64,000 nt of DNA from a virus (taxonomy: Duplodnaviria; Heunggongvirae; Uroviricota; Caudoviricetes), in IMG/VR virus record IMGVR_UViG_2728369393_000001; one strand, written 5' to 3'. Below are positions 69 to 8,191 of the stretch, in pieces. The translations under genes and the position numbers were made by a program. Numbering within the stretch: position 1 is the first letter of the stretch; every line of letters begins with the position of its first letter. The notes under the pieces are model-generated. The model was not told the origin of the DNA. It made no database searches and worked only from the letters and a program-made list of their open reading frames with translations.

Positions 69-503
69 ATGTCTGACGTCTCAACAAACCTCTATAAGAG
101 TCAGTTGTTGGACTATTACTATCAGCGGCGCGCTGAATCGTCCATTAACAAAGGCTCTCGATTTTTAATCAGCAAGGCCGTTTTCGGTACCAGTTCACTG
201 GTTACTAAGAAAGGAGATGGCACTTATGAGATTGGAGAACTGCCAAAGGCTTTCGATCTGGCAGAACTGACCAGTCAATTTTGCACCATCAACCTCGTCC
301 CAACCTACTCAGGCGGGATAATTACTGTCCGAATGGACCTTGATCAAAGTCAGTTGCAGGAAGGGAAAAACTACCCATTCAACACTCTGGTTGTTCTGGA
401 TAACGAGAATAAGCCAATCGCCATTATTTGTGTCCAAGAAGACTCGCTGTATGTGGGCAAAACATATACCGCAGTTATGGCCATAAACTCGACTACAGCA
501 TAA
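69..503 (+). CDS. tail fibre operon protein immediately upstream of the tail fibre gene (P1 R-like by position)
   Basis: 144-aa ORF with ATG at 69, ends 12 bp before tail fibre start; no diagnostic motif. Confidence 0.4.
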   Translation: MSDVSTNLYKSQLLDYYYQRRAESSINKGSRFLISKAVFGTSSLVTKKGDGTYEIGELPKAFDLAELTSQFCTINLVPTYSGGIITVRMDLDQSQLQEGKNYPFNTLVVLDNENKPIAIICVQEDSLYVGKTYTAVMAINSTTA

Positions 504-514
504 GGATATGCTTG

Positions 515-3133
515 ATGAATGACGTTACAGTTGTTACATCGGTTACTTACCCATCACCCGAGTCGTTGGCTCTGGTGGCTGATGTGCAATACCACGAACC
601 ATATCTGTCAGCCGCTCTAAACCGAAAATTCAGGGGAATTGTTGACCCGGGATTTTATGCTGGTTTCTTGCCTAAGCCTGGCGGTGGAATGAACCTGTTA
701 ATCACCTCAGTGGATGGAGATAAAACCGCTGGCGCGGCGTCAGTGGATATTGGTGAATTCTACCAGGTAACTATTCAGCATCGTAAGGATATCTCTCTTG
801 CACTTAACGCAGGCAAGAAATATGCAATTGTGCTGAAGGGAAGATACCTTCTTGGAGAAGATACCTATCAGGTGAATACCGCGTCACATATTCATGCAGC
901 TGAATTTGTTGCCAGAACCTATACCGATTCATATCAGTTAGGTGATGGGGAACTGCTGGTTTGTACGGTGAATATCCCTGCTGGCGTATCTACCATTACT
1001 CAAGAGATGATTGATACATCCGAGCGTATCAACCGCACGATCGGCATTGATATTTCAGACTCTGTAACCAGTACCAGAAGTGATGTTGCTGCGAGTTCGC
1101 TGGCAGTTAAAAAAGCCTACGATCTGGCGAAAAGCAAATATACGGCGCAGGATGCAAGCACAACGCAAAAGGGATTAGTTCAGCTCAGTAGTGCCACTAA
1201 CAGTACGTCCGAAGTGCTGGCCGCCACACCGAAAGCTGTCAAGGCTGCATATGACCTGGCTAACGGGAAGTATACAGCCCAGGATGCAACCACGACACAA
1301 AAAGGGATAGTTCAGCTCAGTAGCGACACCAACAGCACTTCTGAAACATTAGCTGCAACTCCAAAAGCGGTTAAAGCTGCATACGATCTAGCAGCCGGAA
1401 AGGCACCATCCAGTCATACACATCCCTGGAATCAGATCACTGGTGTGCCAACAGCTTCATTGACAGCGAAAGGCATCACTCAGCTCAGTAGTGCCACTAA
1501 CAGCACGTCTGAAGTGCTGGCCGCCACACCGAAAGCTGTCAAGGCTGCATATGACCTGGCTAACGGGAAGTATACAGCCCAGGATGCAACCACGACACAA
1601 AAAGGGATAGTTCAGCTCAGTAGCGACACCAACAGCACTTCTGAAACATTAGCTGCAACTCCAAAAGCGGTTAAAGCTGCATACGATCTAGCAGCCGGAA
1701 AGGCACCATCCAGTCATACACATCCCTGGAATCAGATCACTGGTGTGCCAACAGCTTCATTGACAGCGAAAGGCATCACTCAGCTCAGTAGTGCCACTAA
1801 CAGCACGTCTGAAGTGCTGGCCGCCACACCGAAAGCTGTCAAGGCTGCATATGACCTGGCTAACGGGAAGTATACAGCCCAGGATGCAACCACGACACAA
1901 AAAGGGATAGTTCAGCTCAGTAGCGACACCAACAGCACTTCTGAAACATTAGCTGCAACTCCAAAAGCGGTTAAAGCTGCATACGATCTAGCAGCCGGAA
2001 AGGCACCATCCAGTCATACACATCCCTGGAATCAGATCACTGGTGTGCCAACAGCTTCATTGACAGCGAAAGGCATCACTCAGCTCAGTAGTGCCACTAA
2101 CAGTACGTCCGAAGTGCTGGCCGCCACACCGAAAGCTGTCAAGGCTGCATATGATTTGGCTAACGGGAAGTATACAGCCCAGGATGCAACCACGACACAA
2201 AAAGGGATAGTTCAGCTCAGTAGCGACACCAACAGCACTTCTGAAACATTAGCTGCAACTCCAAAAGCGGTTAAAGCTGCATACGATCTAGCAGCCGGAA
2301 AGGCACCATCCAGTCATACACATCCCTGGAATCAGATCACTGGTGTGCCAACAGCTTCATTGACAGCGAAAGGCATCACTCAGCTCAGTAGTGCCACTAA
2401 CAGCACGTCTGAAGTGCTGGCCGCCACACCGAAAGCTGTCAAGGCTGCATATGATTTGGCTAATGGAAAGCAAGCGGCAGACGCTACGCTCACTGCTCTA
2501 GCGGCACTAGCTACAGCAGCAGATAAACTCCCTTATTTCACAGGTGTTGATCGTGCCGCGTTAACTGCATTGACAAGTGTTGGACGCGCCATTCTTGGTA
2601 AGACCAGTATTCAGAGCGTTCTTGATTACCTTGGTTTAGGGGAAGGCTCGGCGCTGCCCGTTGGTGTACCTATTCCATGGCCCTCAGCCACACCGCCAAC
2701 GGGGTGGCTGAAATGCAATGGTGCAGCATTTTCTTCTGAAAAGTACCCAAATCTGGCAAAGGTTTACCCAACGTTAAAATTACCTGATTTACGCGGTGAG
2801 TTTATCCGTGGCTGGGATGATGGGCGAGGGATTGACTCTGGTCGCTCTATTTTAAGCGAGCAAGGATATGCAACGGAGGATCATGCTCACGGATTACCGT
2901 CAAAATCAACCGTAGCAACTGACCGCTCAATTAATTTCTACTTTGACGAGGCATGGGCTACTAGTGGTAATACGGGAGTTATCAGATGGGGGAACACAAG
3001 CGATGCAGGATTGCCAGCCCCTAATTATGGAACTTTTAAAACATATAAACAGTCCGTAGCTAATTTAGGTACTGCTGGCTTAGAAACCCGCCCTCGTAAT
3101 ATTGCATTTAATTATATTGTGAGGGCGGATTAA
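515..3133 (+). CDS. S: tail fibre protein: constant N-terminal part with 100-aa tandem repeats fused to the currently expressed variable C-terminal collar / receptor-binding domain
   Basis: ATG (MNDVTVV) 29 codons into track ORF 428..3133; repeats KAVKAAYDLA..TQKGIVQLSS; C-terminus GEGSALPVGVPIPWP..TGWLKCNGAAFSS..RGEFIRGWDDGRG (tail collar-like) ending RPRNIAFNYIVRAD. Confidence 0.88.
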   Translation: MNDVTVVTSVTYPSPESLALVADVQYHEPYLSAALNRKFRGIVDPGFYAGFLPKPGGGMNLLITSVDGDKTAGAASVDIGEFYQVTIQHRKDISLALNAGKKYAIVLKGRYLLGEDTYQVNTASHIHAAEFVARTYTDSYQLGDGELLVCTVNIPAGVSTITQEMIDTSERINRTIGIDISDSVTSTRSDVAASSLAVKKAYDLAKSKYTAQDASTTQKGLVQLSSATNSTSEVLAATPKAVKAAYDLANGKYTAQDATTTQKGIVQLSSDTNSTSETLAATPKAVKAAYDLAAGKAPSSHTHPWNQITGVPTASLTAKGITQLSSATNSTSEVLAATPKAVKAAYDLANGKYTAQDATTTQKGIVQLSSDTNSTSETLAATPKAVKAAYDLAAGKAPSSHTHPWNQITGVPTASLTAKGITQLSSATNSTSEVLAATPKAVKAAYDLANGKYTAQDATTTQKGIVQLSSDTNSTSETLAATPKAVKAAYDLAAGKAPSSHTHPWNQITGVPTASLTAKGITQLSSATNSTSEVLAATPKAVKAAYDLANGKYTAQDATTTQKGIVQLSSDTNSTSETLAATPKAVKAAYDLAAGKAPSSHTHPWNQITGVPTASLTAKGITQLSSATNSTSEVLAATPKAVKAAYDLANGKQAADATLTALAALATAADKLPYFTGVDRAALTALTSVGRAILGKTSIQSVLDYLGLGEGSALPVGVPIPWPSATPPTGWLKCNGAAFSSEKYPNLAKVYPTLKLPDLRGEFIRGWDDGRGIDSGRSILSEQGYATEDHAHGLPSKSTVATDRSINFYFDEAWATSGNTGVIRWGNTSDAGLPAPNYGTFKTYKQSVANLGTAGLETRPRNIAFNYIVRAD
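1165..2460 (+). repeat. tandem direct repeat, 300-bp unit, about 4.3 near-identical copies, inside the tail fibre CDS
   Basis: cagctcagtagtgccactaacag recurs at about 1189, 1489, 1789, 2089, 2389; copies differ by a few SNPs. Confidence 0.9.
2619..2644 (+). other. Hin/Gin-family recombination crossover site at the expressed tail fibre locus (constant/variable junction)
   Basis: TTCTTGATTACC-TT-GGTTTAGGGGAA; left half resembles hix-type half-site, right half is shared with all silent cassette sites; homology to cassettes begins exactly at the TT core. Confidence 0.7.
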
Positions 3134-3138
3134 TTATA

Positions 3139-3750
3139 TCAACTGGCTGTAGAAAGTTGTTTTTCAGGCCAGTTGAGATCTGGTGCCGTGGTTAAATCCA
3201 TCGCGTTCAGCTCGTCTATATAATCTAGCACGGAGTTAAGCTGCGTGGTTTCTGCCTGCGTCAACTTCCGTCCAGCCCGTAATTTCAACTGAATCAGACT
3301 AATGGAATCCATCGCAGTATCAATCAATGACTGACGTTTTGTTTCTGCTGCCTCTACAGCTGCACTATGTTGAGCCTCAGTATCAACCACCCATTTCTCT
3401 CCATCCCATTTGTCGTATGGTGTTAGCGGGGCGATAGTGGTTGTATTTTCCGGATAGTCACCCAACACCGTGATTTCTTCGGGATTCCCAGTGTCAATGC
3501 TATAGACAGTTTCGCCACGATGATCTGGCACATACTCCCATGAACTTAAATCCTCTGAACGGAGAATCGCATAACCTGCTTTATGTGAGCCTGGAGCATC
3601 CAAACAAGAATTTGCCGGAATACCAACGCCAACAGCAAGATATTCAGTTGATGCAGAAATATATTCCCGATTACCACCATCATAGTTATAAACGATAATG
3701 TTTCCTGCCTGTATGGCTATAAGTTCGCTATTTAATATCGCATTATCCAT
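3139..3750 (-). CDS. tail fibre assembly protein (Tfa / U-like chaperone) belonging to silent cassette 1
   Basis: 203 aa, ATG; directly downstream of cassette 1 on the minus strand; Tfa-like conserved C-terminal region. Confidence 0.7.
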   Translation of the reverse strand: MDNAILNSELIAIQAGNIIVYNYDGGNREYISASTEYLAVGVGIPANSCLDAPGSHKAGYAILRSEDLSSWEYVPDHRGETVYSIDTGNPEEITVLGDYPENTTTIAPLTPYDKWDGEKWVVDTEAQHSAAVEAAETKRQSLIDTAMDSISLIQLKLRAGRKLTQAETTQLNSVLDYIDELNAMDLTTAPDLNWPEKQLSTAS

Positions 3751-3760
3751 TATGCTGCTC

Positions 3761-4211
3761 TCACAATATAATTGAAGGCAATGTTACGTGGGCGGGTTTC
3801 ATTCCCCCAGATAACTCCGTTCTGTATTGACTGGTAAATTTACCATTAATCGCTCCTTGCCGGACGGCGTTATCTGTCGACAACAGACTATCCCCCCCTC
3901 TGTCATTTGGCACCAATACCGTGTTATCCCACGCGTCCCATGACCGAATATTATGATAATGACTTCCTGTTAACCACCCCTGTATGCTTAAGATGACCCT
4001 TCCCGCATCCACACCTCGCCCATCATCCCAACCACGGATAAACTCACCGCGTAAATCCGGTAATTTATTGGTGGGGTAGGCCTTTGCCAGTTTGGGATAC
4101 ATTTCAGAAGAAAATGCTGCACCATTGCATTTTAGCCAGCCCGTTGGTGGTGTTTCTAAGGGCCACGGAACGGGCACACCAACAGGCAGTGCAGAGCCTT
4201 CCCCAAACCAA
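3761..4211 (-). other. silent tail fibre C-terminal cassette 1 (promoterless gene segment); 1-bp deletion at the junction puts it out of frame relative to the other cassettes
   Basis: encodes GEGSALPVGVPVPWPLETPPTGWLKCNGAAFSSEMYPKLAKAYPTNKLPDLRGEFIRGWDDGRG..; junction reads ttccccaaacc (C4) where other copies have C5 or CCCCT. Confidence 0.75.
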
Positions 4212-4223
4212 CGTTTTTATGCC
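4199..4223 (-). other. cassette crossover site 1 (inverted relative to the expressed-locus site)
   Basis: plus strand TTCCCCAAACC-AA-CGTTTTTATGCC; contains the stop codon of cassette 2. Confidence 0.65.
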
Positions 4224-4687
4224 GCCCTTACGATGTAATTAAATGCAATATTACGGGGCGGGTTTCAGATGCTGTACGAACTGAGCGAGAGGCGTCGAAT
4301 GTCCAGTTATAAGAGCCATAACCCTCAATAATTTCCGTTTCCTTTAGGCCTGTAGATAATACTTGACCATGTTGACTAAATGGCCCTGAACTAAGTACAT
4401 CTCTAAAAAGCTGAGTACGCCCGAAAGAACCAACAATATTCTGAATTGCATCATTCTGTGCAGATAATAAATTACGGCCAGAGTCAATCCCCCGCCCGTC
4501 ATCCCAGCCGCGAATAAATTCGCCCGTAGATCCGGCAATTTATTAGTAGGGTAAACCTTTGCCAGATTTGGGTACTTTTCAGAAGAAAATGCTGCACCAT
4601 TGCATTTCAGCCACCCCGTTGGCGGTGTGGCTGAGGGCCATGGAACAGGTACACCAACGGGCAGTGCCGAGCCTTCCCCCAAACCAA
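4212..4687 (-). pseudogene. silent tail fibre cassette 2, degenerate (two internal -1 frameshifts)
   Basis: conserved N-part intact to PDLR, then frame lost (cgggcgaa where others have cggggcgaa); second 1-bp loss before the terminal RPRNIAFNYIVRAA motif. Confidence 0.7.
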
Positions 4688-4699
4688 CGTTTTTATGCC
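4674..4699 (-). other. cassette crossover site 2
   Basis: TTCCCCCAAACC-AA-CGTTTTTATGCC. Confidence 0.65.
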
Positions 4700-5174
4700 G
4701 CCCTTACGATGTAATTAAATGCGATATTTCGTGGACGGGTTTCACTCCCGCCAGTATTACCAATACTCCCTCGAGAATGAAGTGTCGGTGATGGAATCAA
4801 ATTCCCTCCTGTATTTGAGGCATCAAGCCCCCGTCCTTGTGTGTATGTTTTTTTGAAAATTGTCGCCAGCTCCCATTCATCTTTTGTGTCGTAACCATCA
4901 TTGGCTACAACAATATGTCGGTGCTTTTCCAGCATTCCTGTCTGAATGCTCAATAAAGCACGTCCCGCATCCACCCCGCGCCCATCATCCCAGCCGCGAA
5001 TAAATTCTCCCCGTAAATCCGGTAATTTATTGGTGGGGTAGGCCTTTGCCAGTTTGGGATACATTTCAGAAGAAAATGCTGCTCCGTTACATTTCAGCCA
5101 CCCCGTTGGCGGTGTTTCTAAGGGCCACGGAACGGGCACGCCAACGGGCAATGCTGAGCCTTCCCCCAAACCAA
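4693..5174 (-). other. silent tail fibre C-terminal cassette 3 (intact)
   Basis: in-frame from junction GEGSALPVGVPVPWP to ..TRPRNIAFNYIVRAA stop; track ORF 4693..5169. Confidence 0.8.
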
Positions 5175-5186
5175 CGTTTTTATGCC
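5161..5186 (-). other. cassette crossover site 3
   Basis: TTCCCCCAAACC-AA-CGTTTTTATGCC. Confidence 0.65.
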
Positions 5187-5688
5187 GCCCTTACGATATA
5201 ATTAAATGCAACGTTGCGAGGGCGAGTTTCTGTACCTACATTTCCACTAATTTCACCATAACGTTTAACACTACGAGAGCTAATAGCTCGTAGTGAGGAA
5301 GGCACCTTATGACCGGGTTCGTCCGTTTTAACTATTCCCCCGTCACCGTATGTAGCTAGTATTCCTGGATTTACGCCTTCCCGTGCACTTCCTGCGGCGA
5401 GTCCGTCCCCTGTCCATAATTCCATATAGTGTGCATGGTCCAAAATTGTGTGTGGCTGCCAATTAAGCAAAGCGCGGCCAGCATCCACCCCGCGCCCATC
5501 ATCCCAGCCACGGATAAATTCACCGCGTAAATCAGGTAATTTTAACGTTGGGTAAACCTTTGCCAGATTTGGGTACTTTTCAGAAGAAAATGCTGCACCA
5601 TTGCATTTCAGCCACCCCGTTGGCGGTGTGGCTGAGGGCCATGGAATAGGTACACCAACGGGCAGCGCCGAGCCTTCCCCTAAACCAA
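5180..5688 (-). other. silent tail fibre C-terminal cassette 4 (intact; conserved part nearly identical to the expressed copy)
   Basis: hand translation 5488..5690 has no stop; encodes GEGSALPVGVPIPWPSATPPTGWLKCNGAAFSSEKYPNLAKVYPTLKLPDLRGEFIRGWDDGRGVDAGRALL..RPRNVAFNYIVRAA. Confidence 0.8.
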
Positions 5689-5700
5689 CGTTTTCATGCC
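5675..5700 (-). other. cassette crossover site 4
   Basis: TTCCCCTAAACC-AA-CGTTTTCATGCC. Confidence 0.65.
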
Positions 5701-6127
5701 GCCCTTACGATATAATTAAACGCAATGTTACGAGGACGAATGGTTACATAATTAACCCCATCACCTCGTGAAGGCCCTGCAAATGAAAAACGGGAAAATC
5801 CTGGTTGGTTAGAAACAATTTGGTCATAGTTATTGATTGAATGACCAGACCCAATGTCGAAATTACCTCCGTAATGAGAAAAACTTGTACCATCCTGCCC
5901 TGAAAGCAGGGTACGTCCCGCATCAATCCCGCGCCCATCATCCCAGCCACGGATAAATTCACCGCGTAAATCCGGTAATTTATTGGTGGGGTAGGCTTTT
6001 GCCAGTTTGGGATACATTTCAGAAGAAAATGCTGCACCATTGCATTTTAGCCAGCCCGTTGGTGGTGTTTCTAAGGGCCACGGAACGGGCACACCAACAG
6101 GCAGTGCAGAGCCTTCCCCCAAACCAA
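5694..6127 (-). other. silent tail fibre C-terminal cassette 5 (intact)
   Basis: track ORF 5694..6122, GEGS..RPRNIAFNYIVRAA. Confidence 0.8.
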
Positions 6128-6139
6128 CGTTTTTATGCC
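6114..6139 (-). other. cassette crossover site 5
   Basis: TTCCCCCAAACC-AA-CGTTTTTATGCC. Confidence 0.65.
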
Positions 6140-6566
6140 GCCCTTACGATGTAATTAAATGCGATATTTCGCGGCCTGACAGCAACAAAATTTATACCAT
6201 CACCTACAGAGTTACTGGTGAAATTAAATCGTGAAAATCCTGGCTGATTTCCGACGATGCCATCATGAAAATTAATTGCGTGCCCTGCACCATCGCCTAT
6301 ATTTCCGGCACGCTGAGAAAAGTTTGTAGCCTCTTGGCTGCTTAATAATGCTCGCCCATTGTCCACACCTCGTCCATCATCCCAACCTCGAATAAATTCG
6401 CCCCGTAGATCCGGCAATTTATTAGTGGGGTAAACCTTTGCCAGATTTGGGTACTTTTCAGAAGAAAATGCTGCTCCGTTACATTTCAGCCACCCCGTTG
6501 GTGGTGTGGCGGAGGGCCATGGAACAGGTACACCAACGGGCAGCGCCGAGCCTTCCCCTAAACCAA
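6133..6566 (-). other. silent tail fibre C-terminal cassette 6 (intact)
   Basis: track ORF 6133..6417 starts at an internal TTG; hand translation shows the frame stays open up to the junction. Confidence 0.75.
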
Positions 6567-6578
6567 CGTTTTTATGCC
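6553..6578 (-). other. cassette crossover site 6
   Basis: TTCCCCTAAACC-AA-CGTTTTTATGCC. Confidence 0.65.
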
Positions 6579-7038
6579 GCCCTTACGATATAATTAAAGG
6601 CAATATTACGAGGACGGTTTTCATTAGCTGTTGGCACGACACGAGAGGCGTCGAATCCAAGGTCATCGGTTTTGCCTATATCAGTTGTGTTATTCGGCAT
6701 TCTCGCAGATCGTGTTCCTGCATCATAAAAAGCCCCTCTGATTGCATCAAAAGACATGCCAATCCCGCCATCGGCGAACCCCTCAATATTTCTTATTGCA
6801 TCCCCCTGTGAAGATAATAATTGTCGCCCGGCATCCACACCACGTCCGTCATCCCAGCCACGAATAAATTCACCGCGTAAATCCGGCAATTTATTAGTAG
6901 GGTAAGCCTTTGCCAGATTTGGGTACTTTTCAGAAGAAAATGCTGCTCCGTTACATTTCAGCCACCCCGTTGGCGGAGTGGCTGAGGGCCACGGAACAGG
7001 TACGCCAACAGGCAATGCTGAGCCTTCCCCCAAACCAA
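6572..7038 (-). other. silent tail fibre C-terminal cassette 7 (intact)
   Basis: track ORF 6572..7033, GEGS..NRPRNIAFNYIVRAA. Confidence 0.8.
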
Positions 7039-7050
7039 CGTTTTTATGTG
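7025..7050 (-). other. cassette crossover site 7
   Basis: TTCCCCCAAACC-AA-CGTTTTTATGTG. Confidence 0.6.
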
Positions 7051-7552
7051 GCCCTTACAATGTAATTAAAAGCAACGTTGCGGGGGCGCATTGATATCCA
7101 TGCCCCGGTAAAATTATCCTCTGCCGTCCTTTGAGTGCCTGTTATGGAGTTATCTGATGATGCTGGAACATAATCGCTATTATCTCCTGCTTTAGGATTA
7201 GCAGGGTTTCCAACAGTTATAACAGAATCAGCAGTAGCATAAGCGATACCTACTTTGACATTAGTAGTCAGATCGACACCGTAATAATCCTGCAAAGCTG
7301 TACGAATAAATGTTGCAGTCTGACCACTTAGCAATGAACGCCCTGTATCAATCCCTCTCGAATCATCCCAACCACGGATAAACTCACCGCGTAAATCAGG
7401 TAATTTTAACGTTGGGTAAACCTTTGCCAGATTTGGGTACTTTTCAGAAGAAAATGCTGCTCCGTTACATTTCAGCCACCCCGTTGGTGGTGTGGCGGAG
7501 GGCCACGGAACAGGCACACCAACGGGCAGCGCCGAGCCTTCCCCTAAACCAA
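7044..7552 (-). other. silent tail fibre C-terminal cassette 8 (invertase-proximal)
   Basis: track ORF 7044..7517 plus upstream conserved junction; ends MRPRNVAFNYIVRAT. Confidence 0.75.
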
Positions 7553-7564
7553 CGTTTTAGTCTT
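7539..7564 (-). other. cassette crossover site 8, last of the array, 55 bp from the invertase start
   Basis: TTCCCCTAAACC-AA-CGTTTTAGTCTT. Confidence 0.6.
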
Positions 7565-7618
7565 AATCCCTACCTATACCAACGATGTATTTTTAACTAA
7601 ACAAAGAGGTTGTTTTTC

Positions 7619-8191
7619 ATGCAAATTGGCTACATTCGTGTGTCAACAAATGACCAAAACACAGATTTACAAAGAAATGCACTGAATTGCGCAGGATGTG
7701 AACTGATTTTTGAAGATAAAATAAGCGGAACAAAGTCAGCCAGACCAGGCTTGAAAAAGCTGCTCAGAACGTTATCAGAAGGAGATACGCTGGTTGTCTG
7801 GAAGCTGGATAGGCTTGGCAGAAGTATGAAACACCTTATCACGCTTATAGAGGAGTTGCGGGAAAAAGGTGTTAATTTCCGTAGTCTGACAGACAGTATT
7901 GACACATCAACACCCATGGGGCGTTTCTTTTTTCATGTCATGGGTGCTTTAGCAGAAATGGAACGTGAATTAATTGTTGAGAGAACACTGGCCGGACTGG
8001 CAGCTGCACGCGAACAGGGACGCATTGGCGGACGTCGCCCGAAGTTGACAAAAGAACAACATGAGCAAATAGCGAGGTTGATCGAAAATGGCTACAGCAG
8101 GAAACAGTTGGCAATTATTTACGATATCGGTGTATCGACGATTTATCGTTATCATCCTGTAGAGAAGCGCCAAACTCAATCTGAGCTGTAA
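7619..8191 (+). CDS. cin: serine recombinase DNA invertase (Hin/Gin/Cin/Pin/Min family)
   Basis: MQIGYIRVSTNDQNTDLQ (catalytic Ser), C-terminal HTH; ATG at 7619 with AGAGG RBS; adjacent to the cassette array. Confidence 0.9.
   Translation: MQIGYIRVSTNDQNTDLQRNALNCAGCELIFEDKISGTKSARPGLKKLLRTLSEGDTLVVWKLDRLGRSMKHLITLIEELREKGVNFRSLTDSIDTSTPMGRFFFHVMGALAEMERELIVERTLAGLAAAREQGRIGGRRPKLTKEQHEQIARLIENGYSRKQLAIIYDIGVSTIYRYHPVEKRQTQSEL

Follow-up and report, generated by a model that had tools for sequence, protein, structure and literature searches.

Repetition within phage tail-fibre genes is already on record: the PF03406 motif is a curated Pfam repeat, 'a' repeats have been annotated in the constant part (Sc) of the tail-fibre gene S of phage P1, and variable in-frame duplications are known from long tail fibres. 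Tetart and colleagues reportedly described duplications of the His-box region of T4 gp37 in 1996, and a 1992 abstract by Sandmeier and colleagues is said to trace the mosaics of partly related repeats found in P1 and p15B to sequence amplifications. The P1 record M81956 (Sandmeier et al. 1992) carries annotated repeated elements a0 (36 bp) and a1 (132 bp) and two 222-bp 'b' elements. In Enterococcus phage EfV12-phi1, 1.8-kb in-frame tandem duplications in the long tail-fibre gene vary in copy number within populations under coevolution (PMC6365445). Here, a nearly perfect 300-bp tandem array is described in the S gene of an apparent P1-like phage-plasmid, represented by 64,000 nucleotides (the window) of IMG/VR virus record IMGVR_UViG_2728369393_000001. 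A literature search found no paper on copy-number polymorphism of this particular array.

The comparative data make it likely that the repeat is real and constitutes a tandem array of shaft modules, in frame and variable in number, within the Sc of S, in a phage-plasmid of the p15B type. The gene is organized as follows (aa, amino acids).

515 to 3133, plus strand: tail-fibre gene S, 872 aa, comprising the constant part Sc and the tip cassette now in expression position (Pfam, BLAST and PDB matches)
515 to 1138, plus strand: P1-like N-terminal, baseplate-proximal part of Sc, common to all P1-like elements (megablast matches in P1, P7, SJ46, RCS47 and hundreds of plasmids)
1139 to 1270, plus strand: first 132-bp 'a' element, a 44-aa Phage_fiber_2 module, YTAQDASTTQKGLVQLSS...LANGK (132-bp period in Tandem Repeats Finder; matches the P1 'repeated element a1' in position)
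1271 to 2470, plus strand: four tandem 300-bp units in module register, at 1271-1570, 1571-1870, 1871-2170 and 2171-2470 (Tandem Repeats Finder, unit comparison and module parsing)
2471 to 2629, plus strand: conserved pre-crossover segment of Sc, QAADATLTALAALATAADKLPYFTG...VLDYLG (the array leads into this same tail in all array-bearing relatives, at any copy number)
2630 to 2658, plus strand: crossover-site region at the junction of Sc and the variable tip (Sv) of the invertible system (recurs inverted at the heads of the silent cassettes)

Base-by-base comparison delimits the array by DNA identity to 1180-2463, corresponding to 4.28 copies in frame. Tandem Repeats Finder reported 1180-2470 with a period of 300, 4.3 copies, 98% matches, 0% indels and a score of 2512, as well as an overlapping 132-bp sub-period at 1139-1383 (78% matches). 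The first-pass annotation had placed about 4.3 copies at 1165-2460; its limits fall within ~15 bp of the true ones, and both analyses bear out its count. When unit 2 (1480-1779) is used as the reference, unit 3 (1780-2079) shows no differences, unit 1 (1180-1479) differs at two positions (1204 and 1210), and unit 4 (2080-2379) differs at four (2104, 2110, 2155 and 2156), with a partial fifth copy extending to 2463. The period-300 match ends abruptly on both sides, on the left at 1179 and on the right at 2464. Each of the six differences found among the full units is synonymous, leaving one and the same 100-aa protein sequence in all four. The earlier description of a few synonymous or conservative differences therefore stands in its first half only, there being no amino-acid differences to call conservative. 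An origin of the array by chance was rejected, given ~1.28 kb of self-identity at 98-100%.

The few single-nucleotide polymorphisms (SNPs) form a mosaic along the array. By position within the unit, unit 1 carries T and C at 25 and 31, units 2 and 3 match the reference, unit 4 combines T and C with TT at 76-77, and the partial fifth unit has TT only. This pattern suggests more than one exchange event.

Each unit consists of two modules, termed A44 (132 bp) and H56 (168 bp). The A44 module is a 44-aa Phage_fiber_2 module, YTAQDATTTQKGIVQLSSDTNSTSETLAATPKAVKAAYDLAAGK, and the H56 module opens with a 12-aa HTH 'His-box' linker, APSSHTHPWNQI, and continues as a second 44-aa Phage_fiber_2 core. The HxH motif SHTHPW is present once per unit. 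Together the four units account for 400 of the 872 residues of S, and every added unit is predicted to contribute two more Phage_fiber_2 modules and one HxH linker per chain. The 'a' element at 1139-1270 precedes the array and is more diverged than the array modules; it occupies Sc offset 625-756, as annotated for a1 (1651-1782) in M81956. Over its whole length, the S protein matches Pfam PF03406 Phage_fiber_2 with 602.4 bits (E = 5.5e-186; gathering score, 22 bits) in 10 stretches, and its C-terminus matches the Pfam Collar domain (5.7e-14). A PDB search matched the C-terminal part to the T4 gp37 tip and to a short tail fibre.

The array lies wholly inside the constant segment Sc, upstream of the crossover site, and a search of the window for the junction sequence found no crossover-site sequence inside 1180-2470. 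Site-specific (invertase) variation within the array was rejected, as the array is devoid of crossover sites. Variation programmed by a diversity-generating retroelement (DGR) was likewise rejected, the units being direct repeats without amino-acid diversification. The absence of both features argues that the variation is neither site-specific nor of the DGR type. Structurally, the array is thus placed as the earlier proposal of a second layer of variation on top of tip switching would have it, in the constant segment and upstream of the crossover site at ~2630. Variation of the shaft would be independent of the invertase-driven swap of the downstream receptor-binding tip.

Relatives differ in unit number, in a comparison that the first-pass annotation had proposed as a check. 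Of 647 complete E. coli genomes with a match, 144 carry array-type Sc (query coverage of 80% or more), as do 126 of the 513 PLSDB plasmids that match. The remaining matches are mostly of the P1 type (N-terminal 689 bp only), and others are partial or prophage-type. Unit numbers read from BLAST record spans work at up to four units and undercount longer or differently ending arrays, and modules were therefore counted directly in 16 complete records fetched as loci. The repeat number is polymorphic among these, with the following alleles.

0 units: pPC6-mcr1
1 unit: pS159-2, pHNSHP24-3 and pEC25-AU-EG2
2 units: p1303_95
3 units: pMTY9975 and the plasmid of strain a15
4 units: the window, pCFSAN004176P_03 and pF16EC0278-2
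5 units: pMS6198C
At least 5 units, truncated by IS26: p1002-1
12 shuffled modules, in the order A H H A H H A H A H A H: pOONT121_2

Protein sequences extend this range. The best 120 proteins from a collection of 5.8 billion show 29 distinct architectures, with (AH)4 in 39 and (AH)3 in 37; (AH)4A, (AH)5, (AH)6, (AH)6A, AHH... and H-rich variants also occur among them, and the maximum is 13 modules. Allele sizes differ in steps of 300, 132 and 168 bp, and the frame is always kept. With 0-5 units in complete plasmids, up to 13 modules in proteins, and near-identical flanks around different numbers, the comparison upholds the first-pass suggestion that copy number varies by gain or loss.

In several alleles an A module is joined straight to the QAAD tail, as A-H-A, as (AH)4A or as A alone.

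Alleles ending A-QAAD: IMG/VR loci L002, L010, L025 and L042; L069 (pPC6-mcr1); proteins P0008 and P0065-P0070

An A module directly before the QAAD tail argues that exchanges also occur at the ends of A and H modules, with a granularity of 132/168 bp, beyond whole 300-bp units. In the 183-kb plasmid p1002-1 (NZ_CP021203.1, locus L063, 4741-5479), IS26 cuts S inside the fifth unit and is followed by aac(3)-IIe, which places a resistance region directly in the tail-fibre array of a P1-like backbone.

The array is also not confined to P1-like fibres. A near-identical (A44+H56) array with the pre-crossover segment stands behind unrelated N-termini (proteins P0072, P0113 and P0014). One chromosomal locus of E. 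coli (L070, NZ_CP191548.1, 1626-4200) carries two units in a lambdoid side-tail-fibre gene that adjoins gpJ, lom and an invertase remnant, and another carrier is a second plasmid fibre type with the N-terminus MGADKT.... The shaft-plus-switch segment seems, from these sequences, to move between fibre genes as a block, and the presence of the array behind unrelated N-termini agrees with the mosaic exchange already known for such segments.

A repeat of this kind raises the question of whether the count of 4.28 in the window is an assembly artefact, collapsed or inflated from a true element with another number. Several observations would be compatible with such an error: ~1.28 kb of near-identical units exceeds short-read length; all 10 of the 10 IMG/VR contigs that span the site have a single unit (some with an extra A module), as against mostly two or more units in complete genomes sampled at even spacing; one whole contig (L045) terminates in the repeat zone; and repeats blocked the short-read assembly of induced phage-plasmids (Pfeifer et al., PMC9600943). 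The one-unit contigs are suggestive of short-read collapse or fragmentation. Contigs that span the array may be biased to short arrays, and most ends of IMG/VR loci are not contig ends (L055, for example, begins inside S of a 96.7-kb contig). An end inside the array is for that reason usable for whole contigs only, with one clear case, L045.

For the window itself, however, an artefact is very improbable. Its Sc matches that of the complete plasmid NZ_CP012491.1 without a difference over 2111 bp, down to the pattern of unit-specific SNPs, which argues that four units is the correct number for the window. In addition, (AH)4 is present in many independent records, and the distinguishing SNPs occur in a consistent unit order that neither collapse nor random expansion would preserve. 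The assembly-collapse hazard raised in the first-pass annotation is therefore a plausible one, weakly supported by the one-unit contigs and the published assembly difficulty, although the four-unit count of the window is matched exactly by an independent complete plasmid.

To gauge how recently alleles have diverged, flanks were compared over 2165 bp on the left, comprising 1500 bp upstream and the N-terminus of S, and over 172 bp on the right. The left flank shows no SNPs between p1303_95 (two units) and p1002-1 (at least five), none between pEC25-AU-EG2 (one unit) and pOONT121_2 (12 modules), and two between pS159-2 (one unit) and pMTY9975 (three units). The right flank is identical within these three pairs wherever present. 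Units of a single array also have private SNPs in common: 31C is found in all three units of pMTY9975, and 181G and 259T are found in all four units of pF16EC0278-2. The window has 181G in none of its units, though most other arrays carry it. Such sharing fits the pattern expected from recent expansion or homogenization. The four-unit arrays of the window and of pF16EC0278-2 sit on backbones separated by 31 SNPs in 1165 bp, and their unit SNPs also differ, which argues that the four-unit number was reached or maintained separately. Near-identical flanks around arrays of different length, private SNPs within arrays, and the mosaic SNP pattern thus support a recent change in copy number. Judged by these sequences, the array appears labile on evolutionary timescales, yet not chaotic.

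The same comparison bears on the idea of a stable, fixed array in which differences among plasmids are old inherited alleles or reflect horizontal replacement of the whole shaft segment. Identical four-unit alleles do persist across unrelated isolates, horizontal exchange of tail-fibre segments is known, and the same array resides in other fibre genes. These points notwithstanding, a fixed array is scarcely credible when the left flanks (2165 bp) of alleles of different length show 0-2 SNPs between them and the right flanks (172 bp) show none, when private SNPs are common to the units of one array, and when alleles differ by exact multiples of 300-, 132- or 168-bp modules. Flank identity, private SNPs and exact module multiples are together the signature of in-register homologous exchange within the array.

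A simple model for a variable-number array would invoke either slippage in replication or unequal homologous exchange involving sister or co-resident copies, which would add or remove whole modules while keeping the frame. Homology in direct repeats of this length (300 bp) and identity (98-100%) far exceeds the minimum for RecA-dependent exchange, and such repeats are classic substrates of RecA-independent sister-strand slippage. Gain and loss of modules would be possible because the units are 98-100% identical over 300 bp and have 132-bp sub-repeats in common. Exchange in register, involving either units or the 132-bp cores of A and H, could account for all allele sizes and for the maintenance of frame, and gene conversion would keep the units of one array alike. 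The outcome would be a population of near-identical phage-plasmids with fibres of 0 to at least 7 units.

Several points weigh against reading the array as a labile, length-changing module. Copy numbers in public 'complete' records could partly be assembly errors. Several such records have frameshifts inside the array that break S. The same four-unit allele, with its SNP pattern, recurs in independent isolates, which argues that the array is not hyper-unstable on epidemiological timescales. Finally, the per-unit length given below is a scaling estimate from gp34. The records with frameshifts are L065 (pPEC145_2), L071 (vB_EcoM-673R5), L072 (vB_EcoM-813R1) and L068, in which S is annotated as fragments or as a pseudogene. 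The frameshift lies directly after APSSHTHP, at the CCC run of the HTHP codons, and the array frameshifts are probably long-read homopolymer errors rather than real inactivation.

With unit numbers from none to seven or more among close relatives, the fibre shaft is probably a length-variable, modular region. An AlphaFold2 single-sequence monomer model of two units was unusable (predicted local distance difference test score, 35; predicted template modelling score, 0.19), and the fibre itself is a trimer; the secondary structure in this poor model has a strand at GIVQ and a helix at PKAVKAAYDLA. PDB searches with one unit and with a 7-sequence module profile retrieved Mu gpS only, and T4 gp34/gp12 were not among the matches. 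In the repeated alpha-helix-containing domains of T4 gp34/gp12, a conserved Gly begins a beta-strand and Ser/Thr-Pro begins a short helix of a three-helix bundle, and residues 744-1289 of gp34 (546 residues) span just over 30 nm (PMC5537660). The module motif KG-IVQLSS...TP-KAVKAAYDLA would fit this description of the gp34/gp12 repeat, as would the strand and helix of the poor model, a resemblance that serves as a lead and not as a test. By scaling, a 100-aa unit would correspond to an estimated ~5-6 nm of trimeric shaft, and the four units here to ~20 nm. Gain or loss of units would thereby change the physical length of the fibre and might affect adsorption or host range.

Whether such changes are selected is a separate matter. 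Unit number could be an adaptive 'contingency' trait, in which the reach or flexibility of the fibre is tuned to the depth of the host O-antigen or capsule. Such a trait would form a second host-range axis beside tip switching and would extend, rather than exclude, the variable-number explanation. Copy number shifts on otherwise almost identical backbones, the four-unit arrays on the two diverged backbones of the window and pF16EC0278-2 with their different unit SNPs, and the reuse of the array behind unrelated N-termini, including that of a lambdoid side-tail-fibre gene, could all be taken in this sense; in EfV12-phi1, moreover, in-frame tail-fibre duplications arose repeatedly and only under coevolution (PMC6365445). 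Neutral length drift of a tolerant fibrous shaft accounts for the same data, however, the data here tie copy number to no host type or phenotype, and the units lack amino-acid diversification. Adaptive tuning is accordingly entertained as a possibility, although a rather unlikely one. More improbable still is a stronger version, in which (A44+H56)n would act as a fast-switching length dial, each lysogen culture would release virions of mixed fibre length, and the array with its pre-crossover segment would form a cassette that is exchanged between P1-like plasmids and lambdoid side-tail-fibre genes. If this were true, unit number would set the depths of O-antigen or capsule that can be penetrated, multiplying the host range afforded by the ~8 invertible tips.

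The following features surround S.

69 to 503, plus strand: homologue of P1 gene R, 144 aa (open reading frame (ORF) list; size and 11-nt spacing to S as in P1 record M81956)
3139 to 3750, minus strand: tail-fibre assembly (chaperone) gene, U-like (Pfam Caudo_TAP, 3.1e-30)
3761 to 7553, minus strand: stack of ~8 alternative tip (Sv) cassettes in silent orientation (common frame and crossover-type sequences at their heads)
7610 to 8191, plus strand: serine invertase of the Min/Pin/Cin/Gin type (Pfam Resolvase, 2.2e-51, and HTH_7, 3.5e-15)

Genes of the R type are annotated 'tail fiber protein R' in related phage records. The start of S is the ATG at 515; the mechanical ORF list puts it at an upstream TTG, at 428. 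Positions 1-689 (bp) of S are 93-96% identical to S of P1, P7, RCS47 and SJ46 by megablast (95-96% for P1 and P7, with 95% for P1), and the alignment to P1 passes through a0 and stops roughly midway in a1, at Sc offset 689. The silent cassette ORFs (3761-4177, 4344-4682, 4693-5169, 5180-5488, 5694-6122, 6133-6417, 6572-7033 and 7044-7517) have in common the frame ...PVGVPVPWP...GWLKCNGAAF...RPRNIAFNYIVRA. Certain tip cassettes appear truncated or frame-disrupted, for example 4344-4682. The junction sequence has five matches in the window, one on the plus strand (2630) and four on the minus strand (4660, 5661, 6539 and 7525), with a chance expectation of none.

The homology of R and S, the Caudo_TAP gene, the tip cassettes, the invertase and the inverted copies of the junction together identify the element as a P1-like phage-plasmid (Punavirus, IncY-type) whose tip-switching system is multi-cassette and p15B/Min-like. 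The assignment of the repeat to a tail-fibre shaft, made in the first reading of this DNA, is corroborated by the 10 Phage_fiber_2 stretches, the Collar domain, the identity to P1 S, R upstream, and Caudo_TAP, tips and invertase downstream. The E. coli plasmid pCFSAN004176P_03 (NZ_CP012491.1, 95.7 kb), whose Sc is 100% identical over the 2111 bp considered above, has a different tip in expression position behind it, and its S has 859 aa, versus 872 aa here. ARAGORN found no tRNA genes in the 64-kb window, and no Rfam family reached its gathering score there. P1 itself is said to carry tRNA genes.

As it stands, the array is real but ordinary, a familiar kind of phage tail-fibre feature whose interest stays modest unless length can be linked to a phenotype. 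More generally, it would make the length of the tail-fibre gene an unstable character in P1-like phage-plasmids, a group that commonly carries resistance genes in E. coli, and short-read assemblies are likely to break or under-count at the array. A shaft that tolerates 0 to at least 7 identical 100-aa modules would also offer a natural 'spacer' for lengthening or shortening P1-based delivery particles, in a region that could be changed without touching the baseplate-binding end or the receptor-binding tip. If length affects adsorption, the array would provide a simple recombinational second axis of host range beside invertase-driven tip switching.

Among described systems, the Sc of P1 is alike in its gene (S), its position after R, its N-terminal 689 bp (95%) and the offset of its 132-bp 'a' element, and likewise has a crossover site downstream and an invertase. 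It differs in what follows a1, which is two 222-bp 'b' elements in P1 and the (A44+H56)n array here. P1 also has a single invertible C segment, in contrast to the stack of ~8 tip cassettes here, which is p15B Min-like. The duplications in T4 gp37 and EfV12-phi1 resemble the array in being in-frame tandem repeats in a long tail-fibre gene, upstream of the receptor-binding part and variable in copy number. Those duplications arose in experiments and were tied to infectivity, whereas the evidence here is comparative; the present case also involves a smaller unit (300 bp) in a temperate phage-plasmid. Like T4 gp37, the unit has an HxH 'His-box'-like motif. In the HxH sites of T-even fibre tips, six His residues of the trimer coordinate a metal ion; the HxH motif here occurs once per unit. 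Phage Mu gpS (PDB 5YVQ, 9KI1 and 8JU3) contains the ~42-aa PF03406 motif KG-x-VQLSS...AATPKAVK once, at residues 109-149, compared with 10 times in S. In Mu and P1 the motifs are single or diverged, whereas here they form, in nearly identical DNA, what appears to be a recent variable-number tandem array.

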